A stretch of DNA of 64,000 nt, taken from Dehalococcoidia bacterium (GTDB lineage: Bacteria > Chloroflexota > Dehalococcoidia > SHYD01 > SHYC01). The DNA is taken from the NCBI GenBank assembly GCA_009693005.1, contig SHYC01000001.1:3580-67579 (forward strand). The letters are read 5' to 3'. The translations under genes and the position numbers were made by a program. Positions within the stretch are counted from its first letter, which is position 1. Every line of letters starts with the position of its first letter. This document shows positions 1 to 13,251 of the stretch, piece after piece. Below the pieces are notes generated by a model. It was given only the letters and a program-made list of their open reading frames with translations, was not told the DNA's origin and searched no databases.

Positions 1-477
1 TTCGTTGGCAAGGCGGACGTCCATCAACCATTCAGGCGGCACGCCGTAGCTCAGAAGAGCTGCTTCAGATAATCCGGCGAAAAGCGCGGGCTTCGGCGGT
101 GCTGGCTGTTCCACCTCGACATACTTTGGGATAACAATCTCTTCAACCCGCTCTCGAATCTCCACCAGCTGTGCCGCACCGGTTTTTGGATGCGTTTCCA
201 GCTTACGCCGGTCCGCCCACTGGTAGGCCGCATCGTGGTGACCGGCATAACAGAGTAACAGGCTGGCTTCGGTACGATGTACTATCAGTCGGAGGTCACT
301 GCTGACGCGCACGGACCAGAAATTCTTGTCCTTAGCGTTGTCAATTCTATGGAAGTTCATTCCGGGGTTGGCCGCGTTGAGCTGTAGGTCAAAGGCAGTC
401 GTCTTGACGGCCTTCTGTTCCTCGCCGGTCAACCTGGTAAGGCTATCGGTGAAAGTGTCCGCGATGAGAAAGTCCAT
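1..477 (-). CDS. Hypothetical protein, 5' portion only. ATG at 477, and the ORF runs past the window start. Residues 40-90 weakly resemble a RelE/ParE-fold toxin. Co-directional with, and 8 nt downstream of, the Mod-like gene.
   Basis: Manual reverse-strand translation gives an uninterrupted 159-codon reading frame from ATG 475-477 to position 1 (MDFLIADTFTDSLTRLTGEEQKAVKTTAFDLQLNAANPGMNFHRIDNAKDKNFWSVRVSSDLRLIVHRTEASLLLCYAGHHDAAYQW...). A GGAG lies about 10 nt upstream. It is absent from the ORF track only because it has no stop inside the window. Confidence 0.45.
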   Translation of the reverse strand, partial: MDFLIADTFTDSLTRLTGEEQKAVKTTAFDLQLNAANPGMNFHRIDNAKDKNFWSVRVSSDLRLIVHRTEASLLLCYAGHHDAAYQWADRRKLETHPKTGAAQLVEIRERVEEIVIPKYVEVEQPAPPKPALFAGLSEAALLSYGVPPEWLMDVRLANE

Positions 478-484
478 CGATGGT

Positions 485-1378
485 CTACTCCACCCGGAAC
501 ACCTTCATTACCTCGTCGCCGAGATGATTGATCACCTTGACCGCGATCCGTCCCGAGGCGGGCTTGTCGAAGGGCCGGGAGGTGTCGCTGTTCAGCGTGG
601 CCCAGGCTTCCTCGTTGATTTCCGCCTTCAGGGTAGTCTTAAGCGCGCTATAGGGATCGTTTGCACCCAGGAAGTAGGCGTGGCGGACGAAGAAGCTCTC
701 CTCGTTGTAGTCGGTGTCGATGAACCAGCAGGCGATGCCGTCCGCGCCGTCGCTGCGGACTTCGCCGGTGTTGGGGTGGAACACGTCCACGCCATTGACC
801 TTCACCCGCACCTGACCGTCGTAAGTAGGCAAGAGCGTGATGTCCGGCTCGCCGAAGATGACAAACAGGTTGCCCTTGCCGGTGTTCTTGAGGTCACCGG
901 CCATGTGCAGATCAGCGTTCATCCGTGCCTTGAGAACGGGGACGCGACCGAGTTTTGCGAACTCTGTAGTGTGGGCCTCGTAGTTGAAAGCGCAAGCGAT
1001 TAATACGTCGAACCCGGAGTCGCCGGCTTCTCTTGCCGCCTGCACCAGGTCTGGTCGGGTGACGGTTCCGAACTCCGGGCCGATGAAGATGGCGGCGCGC
1101 TTTTCGACGCCCGCTTCGGCTTCGATGTACCTGCCTTCCGCGCAGACCAGATCGCCCGGCCAGGGGGTGAGCGAGCTAAAGGTGATCTTATCGTCCTTAT
1201 GGGCCTGCTGGACACCTGAGGTCTTCAAATTCTCTAGGATCATTTGGGGAAAGGTCTGCCGCGAATCGTAGCCGGGGCCTGTTTCCGCAAGACCGTCAAT
1301 CAGTTCGCCATCCTCGTCCACCCCAAGCACTCGGTGGGGCGACAGGCTCTCGACGGTGAAGGGCCCGGCCACCCGCAC
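485..1378 (-). CDS. C-terminal ~300 aa continuation of the Type III Mod-like methyltransferase. It is in the same reading frame as ORF 1421..3292 and separated from it only by an in-frame TAG plus 14 sense codons. It is either the distal part of a nonsense-disrupted ~935 aa methyltransferase or a separate downstream protein.
   Basis: Frame continuity was checked by hand: ...SIAAKA-TAG-FEHLYDKPYSDNKK-VRVAGPFTVE.... There is no ATG start (the track starts it at GTG). The sequence ends ...GRIAVKVINHLGDEVMKVFRVE. Confidence 0.5.
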   Translation of the reverse strand: MRVAGPFTVESLSPHRVLGVDEDGELIDGLAETGPGYDSRQTFPQMILENLKTSGVQQAHKDDKITFSSLTPWPGDLVCAEGRYIEAEAGVEKRAAIFIGPEFGTVTRPDLVQAAREAGDSGFDVLIACAFNYEAHTTEFAKLGRVPVLKARMNADLHMAGDLKNTGKGNLFVIFGEPDITLLPTYDGQVRVKVNGVDVFHPNTGEVRSDGADGIACWFIDTDYNEESFFVRHAYFLGANDPYSALKTTLKAEINEEAWATLNSDTSRPFDKPASGRIAVKVINHLGDEVMKVFRVE

Positions 1379-1420
1379 CTTCTTATTATCTGAGTAGGGC
1401 TTATCGTACAGGTGTTCAAA

Positions 1421-3292
1421 CTAGGCCTTGGCGGCGATGGAGGCGTCGATCTCTTTCTGCCGGGCGCTGCGAGCGAACCACCAATCCGCATGGAGCTTCT
1501 TCGCTGATTCCGGCCACGACGGCTCGGCTTTTCTTGGAATCTCCCATTCTTCCCAGGATTTTTTCAGAGCAATGTTCAGCTTCTGTCGCAACGGGTCCAG
1601 CGTTTCCTGCCAGTTGTCCCAGATGACATCAATCTCTACGTTAGCAGTGATAGATTTCAACATAATGTGGGGGACCCGGTCGTACACGAAGCCTTGGCGC
1701 ACGTTGTTGTGAACCGTCTGCGAGGAGGGTGTGTTGCGCATAATCTCTGCCTCTTTGATCTGACCTTCACGTGAATCAGCAAGCAAGTAATATGGATACC
1801 GCGCGCCCATGATACGAGCACGAGCGAGTGCCAGCGCGACACGGGAGGTATCGATAGTGATCCACCGGCGTCCCCATTGCTCTGCGACAAAAGCGGTTGT
1901 CCCTGCGCCACAGGTAGGGTCTAGAACCAAGTCCCCCGGATCAGTCGCCATCATGATGCATTTCTGTACTTGGCGGGTTGACGTTTGAACCACATATATC
2001 TTTTCATACGAGGTGCTCGCCGAACCCGAGTCGGTCCAAATGTTGCTCATAGTGGACAACGGGTTGTCCTCATGGAACGCCACTAAGTAGGGTAGCGTTC
2101 CGTGTAGGACCAGGCGATCGGCTTTGATTAGGGTGTTCATGCCATCCTGATTCGTTCGCCAGCTCTTCTTGTTCCTATGGATATGCGTTCCTTGAAGCTC
2201 AAAATCGAACATACAAGTCGGGGTGTATCCAGAGGATAGCATCCCTTGCGGAGAATACAGCTTCCACTCTCTTGGAAGAGATTCGAGATTGTCTAATTCT
2301 TCCCTAGCAAGCTTTCGGCGCTCGCCACTCGGAAGTTCAGCGTAGTCATAGCGAGATTCAGATCCCTTTGCTTTCATGTCGAATATCGGTCGGAACTTGA
2401 TGCTGCCTTTGGACTTTGCATACCAGATGACGTAGTCCGTAACGTTGGCCATTCCGCCGGTTCCCAGTGGCGACAGCTTCTTTAGAGTGATTAGCGAAAA
2501 GAAGTTCTGATCACCAAAAATCTCGTCCATAAGTGCGCGGATACGATGAACGTTTTCATCACCGATCTGAACGAATATCGATCCGGATTCAGCCAGCAGA
2601 TCGCGAGCGACTGTTAAGCGATCTCTTAGGTACGTCAGATAGGAGTGAACTCCATCCCGCCAGGTGTCTCGGAACGCCTTCACTTGTTCGGGCTCCCGCG
2701 TGATATGTTCGGCATTCCCATCTTTCACATCGCGGCTTGTTGTAGACCACTGGAAGTTGGAGTCAAACCTGATGCCGTAGGGCGGGTCCATATAGATACA
2801 CTGCACCTTGCTGCGCAGTCCTTCCCGCTCCGCCAGGCTGGCCATAACTTGCAGGGAGTCGCCTAGGATCATGCGGTTGGACCAGTTCTGGTCGTGCTGG
2901 TAGAAGTCGGTCCTGTCAGCTCCTTCAGGCATACCGTTAAAGTCCCCAAACAAGTCTAGCTGGTCACCGTCTGCGGGCCCGCCTGCTTTGCTATGGCGCA
3001 GCAGGTCATCGATGAGCACCTTGGGATGCACCTTCTCCTGGATGTAGAGAGGTGGCGCGTGGACCACCAGATCGCTCCAGTCCTGCGCATCCTTGCCGCG
3101 CCACACAAGCTGCGGATCGAGATCGCGGTTGCGCCGCTCGTATGCCACCCGGACGGGATTCTCTTGATCCTTCTCGATAACAGACTGGTACTCCGCGGTC
3201 GGGATGTTCTTCCGCGTAGCCTCGTCGTGGACGAGGGTTTCAATGGATTTAGCGGTGTACTTTCTCGCTCTGGCTTTAGGACTACTAGCCAT
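1421..3292 (-). CDS. mod: Type III restriction-modification Mod subunit: beta-class N6-adenine DNA methyltransferase. Motif IV (DPPY) precedes motif I (VLDPTCGAGTT).
   Basis: 623 aa ORF. Motifs present: NRMILGDSLQVM, CIYMDPPYG and a C-terminal VLDPTCGAGTTAFVAEQWGRRWITID. A GAGGGA ribosome-binding site lies 11 nt after the res stop. The gene ends in TAG at 1421-1423. Confidence 0.85.
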   Translation of the reverse strand: MASSPKARARKYTAKSIETLVHDEATRKNIPTAEYQSVIEKDQENPVRVAYERRNRDLDPQLVWRGKDAQDWSDLVVHAPPLYIQEKVHPKVLIDDLLRHSKAGGPADGDQLDLFGDFNGMPEGADRTDFYQHDQNWSNRMILGDSLQVMASLAEREGLRSKVQCIYMDPPYGIRFDSNFQWSTTSRDVKDGNAEHITREPEQVKAFRDTWRDGVHSYLTYLRDRLTVARDLLAESGSIFVQIGDENVHRIRALMDEIFGDQNFFSLITLKKLSPLGTGGMANVTDYVIWYAKSKGSIKFRPIFDMKAKGSESRYDYAELPSGERRKLAREELDNLESLPREWKLYSPQGMLSSGYTPTCMFDFELQGTHIHRNKKSWRTNQDGMNTLIKADRLVLHGTLPYLVAFHEDNPLSTMSNIWTDSGSASTSYEKIYVVQTSTRQVQKCIMMATDPGDLVLDPTCGAGTTAFVAEQWGRRWITIDTSRVALALARARIMGARYPYYLLADSREGQIKEAEIMRNTPSSQTVHNNVRQGFVYDRVPHIMLKSITANVEIDVIWDNWQETLDPLRQKLNIALKKSWEEWEIPRKAEPSWPESAKKLHADWWFARSARQKEIDASIAAKA

Positions 3293-3303
3293 ACCTGTCC
3301 CTC

Positions 3304-5130
3304 TTAAGCCACCGGCTGCGCTGCGACGGCTTCGATGATCTTATTGAACTCGCCTTCCACCTTGGCCTCGAAATCGGCCTCGATCTGATAGACTTCGGTT
3401 AACTCGGCGAAGGCCCAACGGCCCTGGGCGCCCAGATGGTTCACACCTGGTACCCAGTAGGTATCCATGGTAGCCTTCTTCTCCTTCGCATCTTCCCGGC
3501 GATAGCCCTTGATTTCAACAATCAGGTGCAGGAGGTCGTCATCACCGTGACCGTCATCCACCAGCACGATGAAATCGGGAAGATACTTGCGCGTCTCTGA
3601 GCCAAAGCGATACGGAACCTCTAGTCCGAGCCCTTGATTCTTCACGTAGGCTCTAACACGGGGATGGGCCTCAGCGACCCGGCAGAATTCGGCTTCCCAA
3701 TCGCTGTCCAGGACGACCCAGTTGAGATGGCAGCGCCGCGGATCGGTCTGCCAACGGCGCTTCTTCGATGTGTTGAAGTTGACGTGCATTGTAGAGCCAA
3801 CGGGATTGTAAGGGTCGGGGAGTGCTTTGATGGGGCGTTCGCCCACCAACGCTCGGGTGATGCCAGCGGTGATCCGTTCGCAGGCTATGTCGGCCAATTC
3901 CTGGTACATGAGCTGGGCGGGGTAGCTGCCTCCTTTGCAGAGGAGGCAGCTGTCTAGCCAGTCTTTGGTGATGCGTTTTAGCTGACCGAACAAGTGGAGC
4001 TTGGGTTCTTCTCCAGGGTCGCGCCATTTGGTGTAGAGCAAGCGCTTGGTAACGTGGAAGAGCAGTGTAGAAGGCCGCATGTCTTCAAGGTGTTCCAGAT
4101 TCAGATCAACTTCTTCTCCGATGATACCAGCGTTCCTAGTGATGGATGGGCCAACAAGATCAGGAGTGAGTTCCAAGATTGAGTCAGCGTTGAACTCGGC
4201 TCTCAGACGCTCCTCCGGCAATTCCACGCGATAGCCTTCAACGCGCGGGAAGCGGATTTCGAGTGCATCACGCTCGGGCCGGACAGCCCTGACCTGAATA
4301 GTCTGGCGGGGCGGCTGCGGCGGCGCAACAACGGGTTTGGCCGTAAAGTCAAACGGGATGCCCAGCACGTCCGCATATTCAACGTTGAAGAGACCTTCAT
4401 CCGGACCTTCCTCGATCAAGTCGTAAGACTGGCGCCGCAAGGCCCGGCCAATGACTTGTTCGCAGAGAAGCTGGGTCCCGAAGGCGCGTACTCCCAACAC
4501 GTGGGTGACGGTGTTAGTATCCCAACCTTCGGTGAGCATGGAGACCGATACTACGCAGCGGATAGATTCGCCCAACCGATCGGGCTTGCCGACGGTGTTC
4601 ATGACCTCCCGCAGTAGGTCATTGTCTGTGATATTATCGGCCTGCCGCGGATCGCCGGTTCGTTCTACGATCTCACGGCGGAACCGTTCTATCTCATCGG
4701 CTGCCATGGCGCGGAAGTTATCGTCCAGCGCTTCGCCGGATTCGAGCTGCGCGCTATCTATCAGCAGCGTATTCGGTCGGGCGAAGGGGTTGCCGTACTC
4801 ATCGAAGTTGCGGAACAGCTCAAGCCGGCCATTTACCAGGGTGGTTGAAGCATCTTCGTTCTGCCGGGTGAAGCCCGAAACGTAATCGTAAACTAGCTTG
4901 GATATGGAGGTATTCTGACAAACTATTATGAAGCAAGGCGGGACAATAATACCGCTCGCCTGCCATAGGTCAAATGTCTTCCTATAATGCCCATAGAGCG
5001 CTTCCAAAGCTGTCTGGAGCTCAACGGGCAGGCCTGAGCGGGTCAAGCGGCCCTGAGTTGATGCGGTTCTTCTTTGGCATCCGGGTCCGAATATGCTCCC
5101 ACAGATTGCGGAATCGGGGCATTTGTCCAC
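3304..5130 (-). CDS. res: Type III-like restriction endonuclease Res subunit, distal fragment: helicase C-terminal domain (motif VI QVIGRALRR) plus a C-terminal PD-(D/E)xK nuclease (PDFIV...VEIKG). It is out of frame with the upstream fragment.
   Basis: 608 aa ORF that overlaps ORF 5021..6376 in a different frame. The TAA stop is 11 nt upstream of the mod start. Confidence 0.75.
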   Translation of the reverse strand: MDKCPDSAICGSIFGPGCQRRTASTQGRLTRSGLPVELQTALEALYGHYRKTFDLWQASGIIVPPCFIIVCQNTSISKLVYDYVSGFTRQNEDASTTLVNGRLELFRNFDEYGNPFARPNTLLIDSAQLESGEALDDNFRAMAADEIERFRREIVERTGDPRQADNITDNDLLREVMNTVGKPDRLGESIRCVVSVSMLTEGWDTNTVTHVLGVRAFGTQLLCEQVIGRALRRQSYDLIEEGPDEGLFNVEYADVLGIPFDFTAKPVVAPPQPPRQTIQVRAVRPERDALEIRFPRVEGYRVELPEERLRAEFNADSILELTPDLVGPSITRNAGIIGEEVDLNLEHLEDMRPSTLLFHVTKRLLYTKWRDPGEEPKLHLFGQLKRITKDWLDSCLLCKGGSYPAQLMYQELADIACERITAGITRALVGERPIKALPDPYNPVGSTMHVNFNTSKKRRWQTDPRRCHLNWVVLDSDWEAEFCRVAEAHPRVRAYVKNQGLGLEVPYRFGSETRKYLPDFIVLVDDGHGDDDLLHLIVEIKGYRREDAKEKKATMDTYWVPGVNHLGAQGRWAFAELTEVYQIEADFEAKVEGEFNKIIEAVAAQPVA

Positions 5131-6376
5131 CGGGAATATTATCGGCTATGGGGACCCGCGGCAGTTTGACGATGCCGCACTCAATTGCGTCCATCAATGA
5201 AAAATCGCTCATCGTCCAGGGGAACAGCGTCCCTTCTGCGTAACCGGAACCCCGCAAGAAGAAAGGAGTGGCTGATAGGTCGATGACATGAGCGATTCCC
5301 AGCTTGCGGTTAACCATCTCTAATCCCGAAAGCCAAAGACGGGCGGCCTTGTTGTTCTCTTCAGCCTCCTTCTTGTCCTCGCCTTTCAGAATTTCCACCT
5401 CTTCGGCTCCGGGCTTCGCTCGATAGCAATGGTGCGCTTCATCGTTTATCACAAGGATGTTCTTTATACCCATTAGCTCGGGCATGACTCGCTGGATCAT
5501 CTGCCCTTCGGTCTCTAACGTGTTGAGCGCGTCTCCACGGCCCTGGAGCAGGGAACGACCGCCTCGGGAAAGTTCCATGCGGTCGCGGAGTCGGAAAGCA
5601 TGGTAGTTCGTGATGACGATCTTGGCTTTGTCCAGATCGCTCAGCATGTCGTTTGGCACCAGCTGCAGGGTTCGATAGTAGCTGTCCGGATCGTTGGGCT
5701 TGAGCACCCGCAGGCGGTCTCGAATCGTCAGGCCTGGGGTCACCATAAGGAAACCACGGGTGAACTTACTGCTGTTAGGCCGACGGACTGCGTTAATAGT
5801 CTGCCAGGCGATCATCATCGCCATAACCGCTGTTTTGCCGGAACCAGTGGCCATTTTCAACGCGATACGCAGCAAACCAGGGTTTGCGTCGTTGCTTGCG
5901 TTTGCGATGTGGTCAAGGAAAATGCGCCCGTCACGGCCGAGGTCCGGCGCAACTTCAGTCAGCCAAATGGCCGTTTCAACAGCTTCCACCTGGCAAAAGA
6001 AGGGCCGAAAGCTGTTGAACGAATATTGCCGCCAGTGCTGAAGCAAACGAGCGGTTTCCGGCGTGACGTGCCAGTCATTAGGATTGGGTATCGTACGCCA
6101 TTGGTCTACCCGGCGGCGCACCTCGTTAATGATTGCGGTGGCCTGATATTGCTGTTCAGCTGTGGAGAGACCTTTGCCTTCATCAAAAACGAATTGCGGC
6201 TGGTTTGCCGCAGTCCTGCGCTTTCGAGGTAGAGGAATCGGCGTGATGAACTCCGCAATGCGGCGACTTTCTGCCATCTTGCCAGTTGGTTGTCCTTCCG
6301 TGTCGAGTTCCCAATGACGGGAAGGATACGTGTACGGCGCGTTGATGATTGGATGGTCGAAGAACTGGTCACTCAT
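5021..6376 (-). CDS. res: Type III-like restriction endonuclease Res subunit, proximal fragment: SF2 helicase motifs I (ATGSGKT), II (DEAHH) and III (SAT). Frameshifted relative to 3304..5130.
   Basis: 451 aa ORF with ATG at 6374-6376. It carries Walker A and the DEAH box, and ends ...NSGPLDPLRPAR inside the overlap with the downstream fragment. Confidence 0.75.
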   Translation of the reverse strand: MSDQFFDHPIINAPYTYPSRHWELDTEGQPTGKMAESRRIAEFITPIPLPRKRRTAANQPQFVFDEGKGLSTAEQQYQATAIINEVRRRVDQWRTIPNPNDWHVTPETARLLQHWRQYSFNSFRPFFCQVEAVETAIWLTEVAPDLGRDGRIFLDHIANASNDANPGLLRIALKMATGSGKTAVMAMMIAWQTINAVRRPNSSKFTRGFLMVTPGLTIRDRLRVLKPNDPDSYYRTLQLVPNDMLSDLDKAKIVITNYHAFRLRDRMELSRGGRSLLQGRGDALNTLETEGQMIQRVMPELMGIKNILVINDEAHHCYRAKPGAEEVEILKGEDKKEAEENNKAARLWLSGLEMVNRKLGIAHVIDLSATPFFLRGSGYAEGTLFPWTMSDFSLMDAIECGIVKLPRVPIADNIPGGQMPRFRNLWEHIRTRMPKKNRINSGPLDPLRPAR

Positions 6377-6419
6377 GCTTCACCGTTTTCGGTCGGGCCC
6401 AATCGCCTCTCACAATCAC

Positions 6420-6650
6420 TATTGCAATATCGTGGCTCCGGTCGACGTGACTTAATGTCCCACAAATAGAACATGGAGATGACTTCATTATAACGGAGAA
6501 TCGCCCTGAACAAGACCACAGCCCTCTTGCCAAATTCTACAGCAAGCAAGTGGGATCAGGCAATGTACGTCTTCCTCGCCGAGAAGCGGCGGCGCTCCGG
6601 CTCCGACCGTACCGTACAAGGCTACAGGGGTTCATGCGCATCGCCGCATC
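6420..6650 (+). repeat. Direct repeat copy 1: a degenerate 5' fragment of a tyrosine recombinase (integrase) gene with its upstream leader. About 85-90 percent identical to 7845-8132.
   Basis: Aligned by eye: cgacgtgacttaatgtcccacaaatagaacatggagatgacttcattataacggagaatcgccctgaacaagaccacagccctcttgcc... matches the second copy. Copy 1 has lost the GTG start and has a weaker ribosome-binding site. Confidence 0.6.
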
Positions 6651-6802
6651 CAATATAATGGAGCGCCATTTGACTGATGGTGAGGAGCGTAATTGAACGC
6701 ATATATGTGATCATACACTATGCTCTTGCCGCTGCCCTGGTTGTGCCAGATGATGCCACCTTTCTTCTCTTCGAACAGCTGGTTGTCTTCCCACACCAAT
6801 AC

Positions 6803-7333
6803 TCATGACTCATCCCTTGGTCTGAAGCCAAGTCTACGCCTCGGTTGCGTTGGCGGCACCATCAGTTGGCGGATCGCGTCGAAGACTGCCTTAAACTGCT
6901 CGTCGTAGCGCTCCTCTATCTCGTCGAGCCGGCGCGCTAGGTCTCGGTTAGACGCCAGCATCTCGCGCAGACGCACGAAAGCGCGCATGATCTCAATGTT
7001 GACCTGCACTGCGCGCTGGCTGCGCAGGACGCTGGAGAGCATTGATACGCCTTGCTCAGTGAAGGCGTAAGGCGGGTACCGGCGTCCGCCCCGGCCTGGG
7101 TTGTTTGAGGTCACAAATTGTGACCTCAAACGGTCAAACTCCTCTTTGGTGAGCCGAAACATGAAGTCCTCTGGGAATCGCGCTTTGTTGCGCCCAACAG
7201 CCTGTACCAAGACCTTCGTCTCGACACCGTACAACTCCGCGAGGTCGGAGTCCAGCATCACCTTCTCGCCGCGGATAAGAAGAATCGAGCGCTCTATGCG
7301 CTCTGCCGGTACGAGACTTCGGTTATCTGCCAA
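6803..7333 (-). CDS. ORF6N (KilA-N-like) domain protein
   Basis: 176 aa. Shows the characteristic ORF6N N-terminus ([46 protein letters not shown]). The first in-frame start is TTG. Confidence 0.7.
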
Positions 7334-7431
7334 CGCCCAACTCCTGGAGGTTGCTTCGGATGGCTGGATATAGTACCGTCACGATGTTAGCTCCACTCCC
7401 CGCTGCTTAAAGTCGCGCAGCGCGCCGGCGT

Positions 7432-7749
7432 TCACGGTCGCTCATAGACTGTGACGCCTTCGCTTAATGCCGGCTTCAATATGGTACCGGGGAGATCGCC
7501 GCGGCGGGTAATCTCCTCAGGCGTGGTTACGATCACATCTTTTGGGGCTGGCATGTCAGCGAGGGCGCGCAGCATGGCGAGGGTCATCTGCATGCGATCT
7601 GTGCCGTCCGGCATGACCACCAGGAGATCGTAGTCGCTGTCCCATCGCACGTCTCCGCGAGCGCGCAAGCCAAACAGTATTATACGAATGGGCTGAAAAC
7701 CCTCTACCAGACGCTGTACCATGATAGAGAGAACATCGGTGGTTGTCAT
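7432..7749 (-). CDS. Minimal nucleotidyltransferase (MNT) family protein with a GxRxRGDxxxDSDYDLLV motif. No cognate HEPN partner is adjacent.
   Basis: LFGLRARGDVRWDSDYDLLVV motif. The start is set at the ATG preceded by GGAGGAATAAG (MTTTDVLSIMVQ...). The ORF track extends it 28 codons upstream, which I think is spurious. Confidence 0.7.
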   Translation of the reverse strand: MTTTDVLSIMVQRLVEGFQPIRIILFGLRARGDVRWDSDYDLLVVMPDGTDRMQMTLAMLRALADMPAPKDVIVTTPEEITRRGDLPGTILKPALSEGVTVYERP

Positions 7750-7934
7750 CTTATTCCTCCAAATTAAAGCGCATGCGTACAGTTGCCAGTTGGTCGGCTC
7801 TAATAAGATATTCTCCATCACATCACCGCCCATCGACGGGATTCACCATTGCGCAACATCGTGTTGCCCATCGACTTGACTTAAGCGTCCGTGAATGGAA
7901 TATGGTGATGACTTAATTAGTAAGGAGAATCACC

Positions 7935-8132
7935 GTGAACAAGACCACAGCCCTCTTGCCAAAGTCTACAGCAGACAGGTGGGATCAGACAATGTATGCG
8001 TTTCTCGCCGAGAAGCAGCGGCGCTCCGGGTCGGACCGCACCGTGCAAGGGTACTCCGGAATGCTGCGCTATATCCTTGGGACCATGGGCAGGACTCCCG
8101 ACAAGATCTCGTCTCTCCACGGGTTTGATTGA
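7935..8132 (+). pseudogene. Truncated 5' fragment (about 65 codons) of a tyrosine recombinase/integrase gene; second copy of the direct repeat. AAGGAG ribosome-binding site plus a GTG start. The fragment stops 40 nt before the 3' end of nuoN.
   Basis: MNKTTALLPKSTADRWDQTMYAFLAEKQRRSGSDRTVQGYSGMLRYIL resembles the N-terminal core-binding (SAM-like) domain of XerC/D-type integrases. No catalytic domain follows. Confidence 0.5.
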
Positions 8133-8175
8133 TTGATTTTCCTGTATACTCACTCCGTTCAGAATGAAGTTACAA

Positions 8176-9618
8176 CTACGATAAGCCCAACACCCGCACT
8201 GCACCCTCTACCGCAGTTACCACCGGGGCCGGATAGACGCCAATCAGGATAACTGCCGCTAACAGCACGATCAAAGTCCCAACGGTCAGCGCAGGCATAG
8301 GAAGCCTGCTCATATCCTGCGGCTGGGATATATACATCTGCCTGACCACCTGTATGTAATAGTAAAGAGAGATGAGGCTGTTTGTCACGGCTATAGCCAC
8401 CAGCCATAGAAGGCCGCTATTGGCAGCGGCGGTGAACAGATAGAATTTGGTGACAAAACCAGCGAAAAACGGCAGCCCGGCCAGTGAAAATAGGGCAATG
8501 GTCATAGACAACGCCAAAAATGGCGCTCTTTCTGCAAGGCCCGCGTAATCACTAATTTCGTCCTTCCCGGTAAGATTAAAGTAAGCCGTAGCGCACATGA
8601 AAGCCACGAGATTGCTAGCGCCGTAGCCTGCCACATGAAGAAGTACCGCGCTTGCGGTGAAAGAGTTTAGCGCCACAAGCCCAATCAATAGATAGCCTAC
8701 CTGGGATATACTTGAGTAGGCCAACAGTCTCATCATATTGTGCTGCTGTATGGCTACCAGATTTCCTATGGTCATCGACACTACCGCGATAACTGCCACA
8801 ACAATACCCCACTCCGCCGCAACAGGAGCGAGAGCGCCGGAGAAAAATCTCAGTAACAGCGCGAAGCCTGCGGCCTTCGAGGCTACGGATATGAGGGCGG
8901 TTACGGGTATCGGAGCGCCCTCGTAGACGTCTGGAGTCCACATGTGGAAGGGGACCGCAGCCACTTTGAAACCCAGGCCGGCAGTTATAAGGACCAGCGC
9001 CATAACAAGCCCGCCACTCAGTCCATTGGTCGTTATTAATGTCTCCAACGCCTGCGCAATTCCCACGTAAGAAGTTGTCCCGGCAATGCCGTATAAAAAG
9101 CTGAAGCCATACAGCAGCAGCGCCGAGGCAAACGCGCTGAGGATTATATACTTAAGGCCAGCCTCGTTGGACTTAGGATTGTCTCGAGCGTATGAAACCA
9201 GCACGTAAAGACAAAAGTTCAACAGCTCCAGCGATATATACGCGGTGATTATCTCTCCGGCCTCGGCCATCCCGATCATTGCCAGAGTAGCGAATAGGAT
9301 TAGGCTATAATACTCACCCGGATACCTAAGCCTCTGGTGAACAAAGTCCACAGACATCAATACCACGCTAAGTGACATAAGCGGGAACAGGATACGAAAG
9401 AAGGTAGTGTAGTCGTCTACAATGACCATGCCATTGTAGAGGAAGCCCTGTATATCAGAGCCAGACACAGAGATAACTACAGCCAGGACCAATACCAAAG
9501 CGGTAATGGCGGCAAGAGCCCTCTTGCTTTCCCGCGGCAGGAAGAGGTCACCCACCAGCACAACAAATGCTGAGATAGCCAAAAAGAGCTCCGGAGTGAT
9601 GAGAGATAGATTAATCAT
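8176..9618 (-). CDS. nuoN: NADH-quinone oxidoreductase subunit N
   Basis: 480 aa polytopic membrane protein with the NuoN/ND2 pattern. It overlaps nuoM by 4 nt. The stop is TAG. Confidence 0.9.
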   Translation of the reverse strand: MINLSLITPELFLAISAFVVLVGDLFLPRESKRALAAITALVLVLAVVISVSGSDIQGFLYNGMVIVDDYTTFFRILFPLMSLSVVLMSVDFVHQRLRYPGEYYSLILFATLAMIGMAEAGEIITAYISLELLNFCLYVLVSYARDNPKSNEAGLKYIILSAFASALLLYGFSFLYGIAGTTSYVGIAQALETLITTNGLSGGLVMALVLITAGLGFKVAAVPFHMWTPDVYEGAPIPVTALISVASKAAGFALLLRFFSGALAPVAAEWGIVVAVIAVVSMTIGNLVAIQQHNMMRLLAYSSISQVGYLLIGLVALNSFTASAVLLHVAGYGASNLVAFMCATAYFNLTGKDEISDYAGLAERAPFLALSMTIALFSLAGLPFFAGFVTKFYLFTAAANSGLLWLVAIAVTNSLISLYYYIQVVRQMYISQPQDMSRLPMPALTVGTLIVLLAAVILIGVYPAPVVTAVEGAVRVLGLS

Positions 9619-11111
9619 CCTGCGCCTGCTGCAAGGCCGATTCTTAGGATAAGAGGCGCGACGCCGCTGTTAATAACGGCCATCACGGGGCTGGGGTAAA
9701 GTCCAATAAAGAGCAAAGTAAAGACCAGGATAGCCATTCCGATTCCCTGTATCAGTGGGGCATCCTGCATCTGCGACCAGCGTTCATTCAGAGGACCAAA
9801 AAATACCGTTGCTATAAGCCTCAGGATATATACCGCAGTTATCGCAGCGCCTATCACTCCCAAGACGCCAAAGACAGGATATTTCTCGAACGTAGCAACG
9901 AATATCAGGAACTCGGCCACAAAGCCGCTGAAGCCGGGCAAGCCCAAAGAGGTAAGCCCGGCTACAGCAAAAAAAGCGGCTACCACACCCATACGCCTGG
10001 CCAGGCCACCAAACACAGCTATCTCCCTGGTATGGGCCTGGTCATAGATGACGCCGACCGCGGCGAAAAAGAGGGCCGTCATGATGCCGTGGGAAAACAT
10101 CTGGAGGACTGCGGCGCTGAGGCCGATGGGCAAAAGAGTAGCCATCCCCATTAACACATATCCCATGTGGCTGACGCTGGAATACCCGATAACGTATTTC
10201 AGGTCCTTCTGCCCCAACGCTGAGATCGCGCCATATATCACGTTGACAGTGGCCAGGACTATCAGCAGAGGCATCCAGGTGACAGCGCCCTGGGGCAGGA
10301 GGAGTATCCCAACCCGTATTATTCCATAAGCCCCAAGTTTCATTAGAACGCCGGCGTGCAGCATGCTTACCGCCGTAGGTGCAGCCACGTGACCATCCGG
10401 CGACCAGGTGTGGAAGGGCCAGAGGCCGGCAAGGACCCCAAAGCCTATTAAGATCAGCGGAAAGAAGAAATTCTGAAATTCCGTGGGGAAGGACACTTCT
10501 TGAAGGATAAGGATATCGAAGCTGCCGGTACCGGATTGAACGTACATAGCTAAGAGCGCCAGCCATACAGGGACGCTTCCGGCTACCAAGTATATAGTAA
10601 GCTTAAGGGCGCCGTACTCCTTGGTGCGTGCGAAGTTTCCAAAGTCACTGCTGCTGCCCCATATTCCTATGAGAGGATACATAGGGATGACGGCAAGCTC
10701 ATAAAAGAAGAAGAAGAAGAAAAGGTCTAAAGACTCAAATGTGCCATATACGCCCGCAACGAGGAAAAACAGAAGAATGAAATAGTCCTTCGCGCGATAG
10801 CTCGTCTTCCAGGAGATCAGGACGGCAGAAAAGATGACTATCCCGGTAAGGAGCACCATAGGAGAGGAGATGCCATCTACGCCGAGGTGTAGGGAGACTC
10901 CAAGCTGAGGCAGCCACTTGTAACGCTCTTCCAGTTGGTAACCGGGCAGCGAGGGGTTAAAGATCAGGAACTGATACAACGACAGAGCCAGGCTGCAAAA
11001 CGCGGTCAGTAGAGCCGTCCGCTTAATAGCTCGGTCCCAGGTGGATGGCATAGCCATTATCGCCAATGCGCCAAGGACGGGCAAGAAAATGGTTAGAGAG
11101 AGGATAGGCAC
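9615..11111 (-). CDS. nuoM: NADH-quinone oxidoreductase subunit M
   Basis: 498 aa, NuoM/ND4 family (WLPQLGVSLHLGVDGISSPMVLLT...). Confidence 0.9.
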   Translation of the reverse strand: MPILSLTIFLPVLGALAIMAMPSTWDRAIKRTALLTAFCSLALSLYQFLIFNPSLPGYQLEERYKWLPQLGVSLHLGVDGISSPMVLLTGIVIFSAVLISWKTSYRAKDYFILLFFLVAGVYGTFESLDLFFFFFFYELAVIPMYPLIGIWGSSSDFGNFARTKEYGALKLTIYLVAGSVPVWLALLAMYVQSGTGSFDILILQEVSFPTEFQNFFFPLILIGFGVLAGLWPFHTWSPDGHVAAPTAVSMLHAGVLMKLGAYGIIRVGILLLPQGAVTWMPLLIVLATVNVIYGAISALGQKDLKYVIGYSSVSHMGYVLMGMATLLPIGLSAAVLQMFSHGIMTALFFAAVGVIYDQAHTREIAVFGGLARRMGVVAAFFAVAGLTSLGLPGFSGFVAEFLIFVATFEKYPVFGVLGVIGAAITAVYILRLIATVFFGPLNERWSQMQDAPLIQGIGMAILVFTLLFIGLYPSPVMAVINSGVAPLILRIGLAAGAG

Positions 11112-13222: not shown

Positions 13223-13251
13223 ATGATATAATCTAGCTTGTCAACTCTAAT

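Follow-up and report, generated by a model that had tools for sequence, protein, structure and literature searches.

Why does the beginning of a tyrosine-recombinase gene occur twice, in direct orientation, next to nuoN in the genome of a Dehalococcoidia bacterium, and what happened to the rest of it? The question is raised by a 64-kb stretch of DNA (64,000 nucleotides (nt) of contig SHYC01000001.1, assembly GCA_009693005.1), called the window here; all coordinates below are window positions unless a locus number is given. The source of the window is a metagenome-assembled genome (MAG). Relatives of the recombinase gene were collected by scanning one genome per species, which gave 80 related loci (L-numbers, e.g., L056; the proteins encoded in them have P-numbers, e.g., P0005), and 52 full-length recombinase relatives of ~310 amino acids (aa) were used as tblastn queries against the window. 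As a feature of the window, the pair is an ordinary scar, namely integrase pseudogenes at the borders of decaying anti-phage defence islands. The best explanation is probably that two islands were once stacked beside nuoN and that their mobility modules were lost by deletion, leaving the 5′ stubs of two paralogous recombinase genes.

The direct repeat is real and occurs twice. In blastn, 6416-6625 aligns with 7843-8054 at 80.7% identity over 212 columns (E 2e-52), and a repeat search returns an ungapped part, 6424-6625 and 7853-8054, with 81% identity and a spacing of 1429 nt. No third copy was found in the whole 64 kb by blastn with both copies. The repeat starts 92 nt 5′ of the start codon, covers a promoter-like motif and the leader, and ends abruptly after codon 40. 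The two copies are 86.7% identical over the 120 coding nt and ~72% identical over the 92 upstream nt. An earlier note on this DNA placed the repeat correctly and gave its identity as 85-90%, which is too high for the ~81% found overall. The note also extended the repeat over 6420-6650 and 7845-8132; the location is right, but the repeat ends at 6625 and 8054, and the remainder (6626-6650 and 8055-8132) aligns locally with a score no higher than that of shuffled sequence. The ending TTTGAYTGAT, apparently shared by both copies, was considered as an extension past 6625 and 8054 and was rejected, being no better than shuffles. No sharp step in base composition was seen at either repeat.

Both copies are truncated 5′ ends of an Xer-like tyrosine recombinase gene. 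Copy 1 keeps 40 codons (6506-6625) and copy 2 keeps 64, and in tblastn they match residues 5-46 (E 6e-10) and 2-62 (E 1e-17) of the full-length relatives, respectively. Each copy falls in the SAM-like N-terminal core-binding domain, yet only about half of this domain is present. With the 52 relatives as queries, neither the catalytic domain (R-H-R-Y residues) nor any other match past residue ~64 was found anywhere in the window, so the copies are gene fragments and not enzymes. They are stubs without recombinase function now. The alignment of both copies to the N-termini of 52 recombinases also refutes a dispersed repeat unrelated to integrases.

The two stubs differ in how much of their expression signals they have kept. 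In copy 1, CTG (6506-6508) stands in place of the GTG start codon, the Shine-Dalgarno sequence reads ACGGAG, the promoter-like hexamers have decayed to GTGACT (6447-6452, compared with TTGACT) and CATGGA (6472-6477, compared with TATGGT), and homology stops at codon 40; by these signs copy 1 is clearly dead. Copy 2 has kept all its signals, including the Shine-Dalgarno sequence AAGGAG (7922-7927), the GTG start at 7935, the promoter-like motif, and a leader hairpin. Its 65-aa open reading frame (ORF) ends at 8132, 43 nt from the nuoN stop codon, and no recombinase, tRNA or repeat signal was found in this 43-nt junction (8133-8175). The ORF is identical to the NCBI hypothetical protein EXR50_00040 of a Dehalococcoidia MAG and has no Pfam match on its own. 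Read against its full-length relatives, the ORF annotated as a "hypothetical protein" is a pseudogene of the recombinase. Transcription and translation of copy 2 may continue and would yield a 65-aa peptide, and nothing points to an activity of that peptide. Most of the anatomy proposed in the earlier note is borne out by these results: two truncated integrase 5′ ends, neither with a catalytic domain; a first copy that is more decayed; and a second copy with a good ribosome-binding site and a GTG start that encodes the first ~65 aa of a tyrosine recombinase close to nuoN.

The promoter-like motif and the leader deserve a closer description, as both recur in the relatives. In copy 2, the hexamers TTGACT (7876-7881) and TATGGT (7901-7906) are separated by a 19-nt spacer, and the same motif is located ~55 nt 5′ of the start codon in about half of the 80 related loci. 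A standard sigma-70 scan did not call the motif of copy 2 because the spacer is 19 nt. The leader folds into a hairpin in which UAUGGUGAU is paired with AUCACCGUG, joining the presumed 5′ end of the transcript (AUGGUG/C...) to the start-codon region (...C/GACCAUG). The fold of the copy 2 leader has an energy of -12.2 kcal/mol and a z score of -4.4, and the copy 1 leader has a z score of -1.8. The helix is kept with compensatory changes in 18 relatives: at pair 6-34, 9 sequences have GC and 8 have CG, and pair 7-33 occurs as GC, AU or CG. We note that the hairpin is also present in related loci such as L044 (9933-9966) and L023 (9970-10008), with compensatory changes across subtypes. The hairpin may control translation of the recombinase. 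In relatives, the position of the motif behaves like a recombination site, as judged from the junctions described below, and the motif could serve as both promoter and site.

The differences between the copies bear on their origin. There are 16 differences in the coding part, 3, 4 and 9 of them at codon positions 1, 2 and 3, respectively, and the ratio of nonsynonymous to synonymous substitution rates (dN/dS) is 0.27 by the Nei-Gojobori method. Because of the third-position bias and the dN/dS of ~0.27, the copies are likely two genes that diverged while encoding a functional protein rather than a duplicated pseudogene, although the differences are few (n=16). Paralogues of this recombinase family within one genome are typically 85-88% identical and have nothing in common outside the gene, and the pair in the window fits this description.

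The intact members of the family indicate what the stubs once were. The 80 related loci come nearly all from MAGs of Dehalococcoidia or other Chloroflexota, and most of them encode a full-length protein of 300-315 aa. The family is multi-copy, with at least seven copies in one genome that have only the recombinase gene in common. The full-length relative in L056 matches Phage_integrase (PF00589, 1.4e-15) and Phage_int_SAM_1, and longer relatives carry PF02899. The L056 protein scores 93.7 bits against NCBIfam XerA (cut-off 220), 87.3 against XerC (cut-off 335), and 86.6 against XerD (cut-off 330), which places it outside these orthologue groups, and it scores 31.6 bits against the integron-integrase model TIGR02249 (cut-off 265), which places it outside IntI. 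Judged by these scores, the family is Xer-like but distinct, and uncharacterised. Broken copies are common and include frameshifted, internally deleted, and truncated forms. For example, P0005 (L001) has lost the interior of the recombinase gene and retains its first 57 codons and its final 11. Stubs of the family break just after the promoter motif or at codons 26, 27, 37-42, 47, 62-64, 76-82, 97, and 159-205. An exhaustive HMMER search returned mainly short proteins, which reflects clustering and contig ends and is no proof that fragments outnumber intact genes.

The surroundings of the gene in these loci follow a recurrent plan, with cargo upstream and a module downstream. In L056, homologues of the window's Type III restriction-modification (R-M) system lie directly 5′ of a full-length recombinase gene and are divergent from it, as in the window, with an ORF6N gene between mod and res. 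Homologues of this system are also found 5′ of the recombinase gene in L020, in the opposite orientation and beside a TIR-domain gene. In L004-L006, an intact Type I R-M operon is divergent from a 48-aa stub that belongs to the same clade as the window stubs; L007 has such a stub at this chromosomal site too, divergent from other cargo. The stub P0015 is divergent from an SNF2-type helicase gene. On the downstream side, many loci carry a module consisting of the recombinase gene, a ~372-aa gene, and a ~305-aa gene, often followed by a large serine recombinase gene (L056 9938-15187 and L020 9944-15137; also L017, L038, L057, L010, L028, and L029). The 372-aa and 305-aa proteins have no match in Pfam, NCBIfam or PADLOC. 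Of 60 loci, 20 have a tRNA or tmRNA gene 0.5-6 kb beyond the recombinase gene and on the other strand. The large serine recombinase gene abuts or overlaps the tRNA or tmRNA gene in L056, L009, L017, L038, L057, and others, and in L056 and L009 its ORF runs across that gene. Judging from this arrangement, the tyrosine-recombinase gene marks the line between defence cargo and mobility module. Because a large serine recombinase, lying on a tRNA or tmRNA gene, closes the intact modules, the tyrosine recombinase need not have been the enzyme that integrated the islands. No conserved element was found 3′ of the recombinase stop codon across the full-length loci. A direct repeat of a tRNA 3′ half, as expected for an attachment (att) repeat, was sought in 21 related loci and not found in their 10-kb flanks, which the islands may exceed.

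In the window, both stubs occupy boundaries, in line with the inner island boundary proposed in the earlier note. Copy 1 separates the Type III R-M block, with mod and res, from the block that follows, and copy 2 is found where the island meets nuoN. Against the 928-aa Mod of L056, tblastn gives one alignment (3244-491) that crosses the in-frame TAG of mod, and the two ORFs into which mod is divided correspond to positions 74-658 and 674-983 of one PADLOC MTase_III profile. The res gene aligns in two tblastn pieces to the 1103-aa Res of L056 (query 116-527 and 523-1095); between res and copy 1, which are divergent, there is an intergenic gap of 130 nt. In both L056 and L020, the mod and res homologues are each encoded by one intact ORF. 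Point mutations appear to have inactivated the Type III R-M system of the window. Another ORF, on the minus strand from ~470 (MDFLIADTFTDSLTRLTGEEQKAVKTTAFDLQ...), leaves the window at its left end (1-470), so the island extends past the window start.

Between the repeats, the earlier note saw an ORF6N gene and a solitary MNT gene, and both are indeed there. It took them for a discrete 1.3-kb cassette, which they are not: the interval holds ~1.2 kb of Type I R-M residue with partial genes. The ORF6N protein is 84% identical to P0172, which is encoded between hsdM and hsdS of an intact Type I operon, and its closest relatives (79-84% identity) are located inside intact Type I R-M operons with the order hsdM-ORF6N-hsdS-...-hsdR. 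At the DNA level, 6765-7380 is 80.5% identical to L168 7955-8565, and the similarity extends into the 3′ end of the L168 hsdM; a 16-residue peptide from this hsdM remnant matches the HsdM C-terminus. Directly past the ORF6N stop codon lies a scrap of hsdR, 19 codons round helicase motif I (GGIIWHNQGSGKS). The scrap corresponds to positions 265-283 of 674 in NCBIfam hsdR and 262-285 of 1034 in PADLOC REase_I, and in tblastn it matches the HsdR proteins of L168 and L171 and gives no match to the HsdR of L004. No hsdS was found between the repeats, and ~16 hsdM codons and 19 hsdR codons are what is left of the hsdM, hsdS and hsdR set. Compared with the intact operons, what lies between the repeats is a Type I R-M operon that has collapsed, and not a discrete cassette or mobile unit. 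The MNT gene has no HEPN partner: no ORF or HEPN match adjoins 7432-7833, and none is present in 7334-7431. The region 1-8175 is thus a graveyard of defence systems, with a Type III R-M system that is apparently inactivated, a Type I R-M system in scraps, and an MNT gene that is partnerless.

We consider it probable that the window holds two stacked islands, because intact relatives place the recombinase gene at the inner edge of an island, with cargo upstream and the module downstream. Island 1 would have carried the Type III R-M system and recombinase gene 1, now ending in stub 1, and island 2 would have carried the MNT gene, the Type I R-M operon and recombinase gene 2, now ending in stub 2 beside nuoN. 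The islands would once have been followed by a module and a target beside nuoN. Several independent deletions would have followed: gene 1 would have been lost from codon 41 on, along with its module and the distal part of island 2 as far as hsdR, and further deletions would have removed hsdS and most of hsdR and hsdM. Another deletion would have taken gene 2 from ~codon 65 on, with its module, up to a point 43 nt from nuoN, and point mutations would apparently have inactivated the Type III genes. We infer this tandem-island history and the order of the deletions from the homology of the copies, the anatomy of the stubs, the wrecked genes, and the architecture of the relatives. The earlier note had read the locus as the scar of serial integrations or deletions at one attachment region. 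Serial acquisition followed by deletion agrees with our analysis, but a single att core does not, as the copies break at codons 40 and ~64. The note had also expected that a full-length homologue would define the att core; full-length genes of ~310 aa were found, but they define no core, and stub breaks are scattered.

Several points weigh against this history. The dN/dS estimate is based on just 16 differences, and stubs of the family are over-represented at short lengths, a bias not predicted by purely random deletion. No tRNA or tmRNA gene or fragment is present at the nuoN junction, so that a lost target tRNA gene would have to be accounted for; the only tRNA gene in the window is a tRNA-Met gene at 13251. 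The window also contains no large serine recombinase, and the signature of a tRNA- or tmRNA-targeting island was not found there. No close relative of the genome was found that could show an empty nuoN site or an intact island, the nearest NuoN being at most 52% identical; a NuoN scan of metagenome contigs (best match 52%), with no recombinase or tRNA downstream in any of the 80 loci, says little either way. The nonsense codon in mod and the frameshift in res could be MAG assembly errors. Finally, the two copies are closer to each other (81-87%) than to any other retrieved sequence (at most 74%), which would also fit a local duplication, discussed below.

A different origin is suggested by short sites upstream of the recombinase gene in the relatives. 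A site profile built from 34 proximal motifs picked out additional motif copies in at least 17 loci; they lie 0.35-3.6 kb 5′ of the recombinase gene, with as many as three in succession. Of 61 matches to the profile, 60 are on the strand of the recombinase gene; the sole minus-strand match, in L053, is an inverted proximal site ~35-70 nt past the recombinase stop codon. The distal copies are not random stubs, as their similarity to recombinase 5′ regions ends 0-13 nt after ATGGT. Co-oriented short sites bound cassettes of 0.4-2.5 kb in L016, L033, L081, L023, L027, L032, L044, and L052. The clearest pair is L016 and L018, which have the recombinase gene in common and an upstream region that is 91% identical. 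At the exact position of the L018 site, L016 has in addition a 0.92-kb cassette (a metallo-beta-lactamase-fold gene) and a second copy of the site: the L018 site reads ...TAATGCATCATGGT/CATGATTC, the distal site of L016 reads ...TAATGCATCATGGT/GTGCGGCCCAGCCC, and its proximal site reads ...AAGCGAATATGGT/CGTGATTC, where the slash marks the junction. In L033 and L081 this cassette has the same starting point, to the nucleotide, but a different left half, ...CCATGAGGTCATCGT/, in front of it. In the pairs L027/L032 and L023/L027, the left flank and the site are in common and divergence begins right after the site. Most genes between sites are encoded on the other strand; among the genes found there are TIR, trypsin-like, nucleotidyltransferase, DUF4145, and HSDR_N+RAMA genes. 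There is also a second, palindromic site class, CACACSATSAGGTCATMGTGTG, with ~20 sites, mostly co-oriented, upstream of the recombinase gene; in L036 and L054 the palindromic element is located ~25 nt from a TTGACTTC-type site. A ~500-nt segment upstream of the recombinase gene in L041 is present in three copies in L048 (Y-6615, Y-4064, and Y-1950, Y being the conserved YAFL tyrosine codon), and the triple segment in L048 is a repeated gene or element within the array. A 10-8-10 dyad was considered for the distal sites and rejected; it is striking in L016, but over 19 sites the complementarity of the arms equals the cross-pairing control.

This site pattern looks like the expected trace of site-specific cassette insertion and excision beside a recombinase gene, with clean junctions coming from 3-4 locus pairs. 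A tentative possibility, which we hold to be worth following, is that Dehalococcoidia have an integron-like platform for gene capture, so far undescribed, of which the stubs are dead ends and which rides on serine-recombinase islands at tRNA or tmRNA genes. Such a platform would have an Xer-like recombinase with a recombination site overlapping its own promoter and leader. The recombinase would insert and excise short, mostly single-gene, defence-type cassettes oriented away from its own gene; in the window, the defence genes 5′ of the two stubs would represent what two such platforms had gathered before they died. If this is true, the junction of an excised circular cassette would read, e.g., ...GCGAATATGGT joined to GTGCGGCCCAGCCC, and there would be a second, non-IntI route to integron-like gene capture, in a phylum whose gene mobility is poorly understood. 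A literature search found no paper linking integrons and Dehalococcoidia, and this silence is weak evidence of novelty.

As an account of the window itself, we regard it as unlikely that the two stubs are relics of such platforms and that their upstream defence genes were gathered through the motif site and not as whole islands. The extra co-oriented motif copies and the precise cassette gain and loss in relatives speak for it, but they come from loci where the clean junctions number only 3-4 pairs, the motif also resembles an ordinary promoter, and the dyad symmetry of distal sites does not exceed the control. In the window, the repeats extend 40 codons into the gene, which is not predicted for a site-bounded cassette, and the genes between them are partial. 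No distal or palindromic sites were found in the window, and its only repeated element is the stub pair, which does not make an integron array. The cassette lead explains the family rather than the origin of the window stubs, because the window is without such sites and the repeats run well into the coding region.

With integrons (IntI, attI, attC), the relatives, though not the window, share a tyrosine recombinase gene with a site beside its promoter and short, mostly single-gene cassettes, many of defence type, oriented away from the recombinase gene with conserved sites between them. The differences are that the enzyme is not of the IntI type, that the sites of the relatives are ~30-45 nt long and resemble each other and the proximal site instead of being attC hairpins with a GTTRRRY box, and that the window has two stubs and no array. 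The pdif modules of Acinetobacter plasmids and the cis-mobilizable elements (CIMEs) next to integrative and conjugative elements are small units without their own recombinase that are bounded by short sites; they carry toxin-antitoxin or defence-type genes and accumulate beside an element that supplies the enzyme. The pdif sites are acted on by the XerC/XerD of the host, and their orientation alternates. The relatives likewise contain small, site-bounded units without a recombinase, but their sites are co-oriented beside a dedicated Xer-like gene, and there are none in the window.

The stubs could also derive from a single recombinase 5′ region that was duplicated in place, e.g., by unequal recombination or by insertion of a 1.2-kb block with a long target duplication, after which both copies decayed. 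Besides being each other's nearest sequences, the copies are in direct orientation and 1.43 kb apart. We nevertheless judge a local duplication quite improbable. The 19% divergence, the third-position bias and the dN/dS indicate divergence under selection at the protein level, and an identity of this order is typical of paralogues within one genome. Defence cargo of its own is divergent from each copy, arranged as at intact genes, and the two truncation points differ.

Very little probability remains for an assembly artefact, in which the contig would be chimeric or mis-joined at the repeated recombinase sequence. The source is a MAG and the family is multi-copy within genomes, but an identity of 81% is too diverged for a collapse or mis-join, the unique flanks make biological sense, and composition does not break at the repeats. 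Least credible of all is a partition of the SSV ("suicidal") type, where the att core lies within the integrase ORF and integration splits the gene (PMC7253208), so that the stubs would be N-terminal pieces. As at the right end of an SSV-type element, stub 2 reads outward to the host junction at the edge of integrated DNA with its cargo upstream (PMC7253208, PMC8371274), and public data contain many N-terminal-only fragments. This idea is nevertheless largely refuted, as full-length genes of this bacterial family are found intact in the integrated state beside chromosomal genes and tRNAs, the break points are scattered and not fixed, neither junction has a tRNA-like sequence or tRNA-derived core, and the window has no C-terminal fragment, the left end of the island lying beyond it.

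The proposed history of two stacked, deleted islands has its nearest parallel in the same bacterial class. In Dehalococcoides, tandem islands at ssrA each carry a conserved integration module with the serine recombinase DsiB (McMurdie et al. 2011, PMC3146451). Stacked islands, a conserved module at the edge, and variable cargo are common to both, the dsiB/attL arrangement resembles the serine-recombinase ORF over the tRNA or tmRNA gene in L056 and L009, and decay by deletion was also noted there (PMC3146451). The module differs, being tyrosine recombinase/372-aa/305-aa/serine recombinase here and DsiB/DsiA/RecF/ParB/Mom in Dehalococcoides, and so does the cargo, which is anti-phage defence here and reductive dehalogenases there. 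In addition, neither a serine recombinase nor a tRNA or tmRNA gene has been retained at the island edge in the window, and direct repeats of tRNA 3′ ends were not found within 10 kb in the relatives.

Degenerate integrase pseudogenes occur at the edges of fixed genomic islands and cryptic prophages. The window agrees with this in that a truncated gene without a catalytic domain borders decaying acquired DNA. It differs in that two related stubs stand in tandem, both with the 5′ end and expression signals (decayed in copy 1), and in that they belong to an uncharacterised family. The wider value of the locus lies in that family, which is abundant and multi-copy in Dehalococcoidia and is located exactly where island cargo begins; in several relatives, the motif upstream of the gene marks precise gain or loss of a cassette. 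The features of the window and the sites named in relatives are collected in Table 1.

Table 1. Positions of the recombinase stubs, their signals and the neighbouring defence genes in the window, with sites in related loci.
Feature	Positions	Strand	Evidence
Repeat copy 1, dead stub of recombinase gene 1	6416..6625	+	blastn against copy 2; tblastn
Repeat copy 2, part common with copy 1 (promoter-like motif, leader, codons 1-40 of gene 2)	7843..8054	+	blastn, repeat search
Truncated recombinase ORF, 65 aa	7935..8132	+	family homology to codon ~62-64; tblastn
TTGACT-N19-TATGGT motif, gene-proximal	7876..7906	+	sole exact match in window; promoter-like
Leader hairpin, encloses Shine-Dalgarno sequence and GTG start	7901..7937	+	fold, covariation
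Junction between truncated recombinase ORF and nuoN stop codon (stop at 8176), 43 nt, island/core boundary	8133..8175	.	sequence read
Type III methyltransferase gene mod, in-frame TAG at 1421-1423	485..3292	-	tblastn, PADLOC
Type III restriction gene res, frameshift in 5021-5130 overlap (near 5063-5130)	3304..6376	-	tblastn; Pfam ResIII + RE_endonuc
hsdR remnant, 19 codons	6713..6769	-	NCBIfam, PADLOC, tblastn
Intact ORF6N-domain gene, PADLOC candidate PDC-S05	6803..7333	-	Pfam 2e-35; PADLOC 3.5e-60
hsdM 3′ remnant, last ~16 codons, overlaps ORF6N start as in intact operons	7326..7380	-	DNA alignment to L168
Lone MNT gene, MntA-like nucleotidyltransferase, likely start 7752	7432..7833	-	Pfam NTP_transf_2 8.6e-7; NCBIfam MntA 9.8e-6; PADLOC PDC-S09 2e-9
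L016 sites	9018-9062 and 9937-9981 (L016)		
L018 site	1941-1971 (L018)		
Palindromic CACACSATSAGGTCATMGTGTG examples (Y, conserved YAFL tyrosine codon)	L016 Y-3644, L023 Y-4396, L022 Y-790, L036 Y-153, L054 Y-1619		

One further observation concerns two loci with unrelated stubs. In L001 (10001-10260) and L086 (10105-10260), the stubs are followed by a common sequence with repeated TGACAGCA words (TCTGACAGCAGTnnTGACAGCAA), and this common sequence may be the end of a small mobile element.

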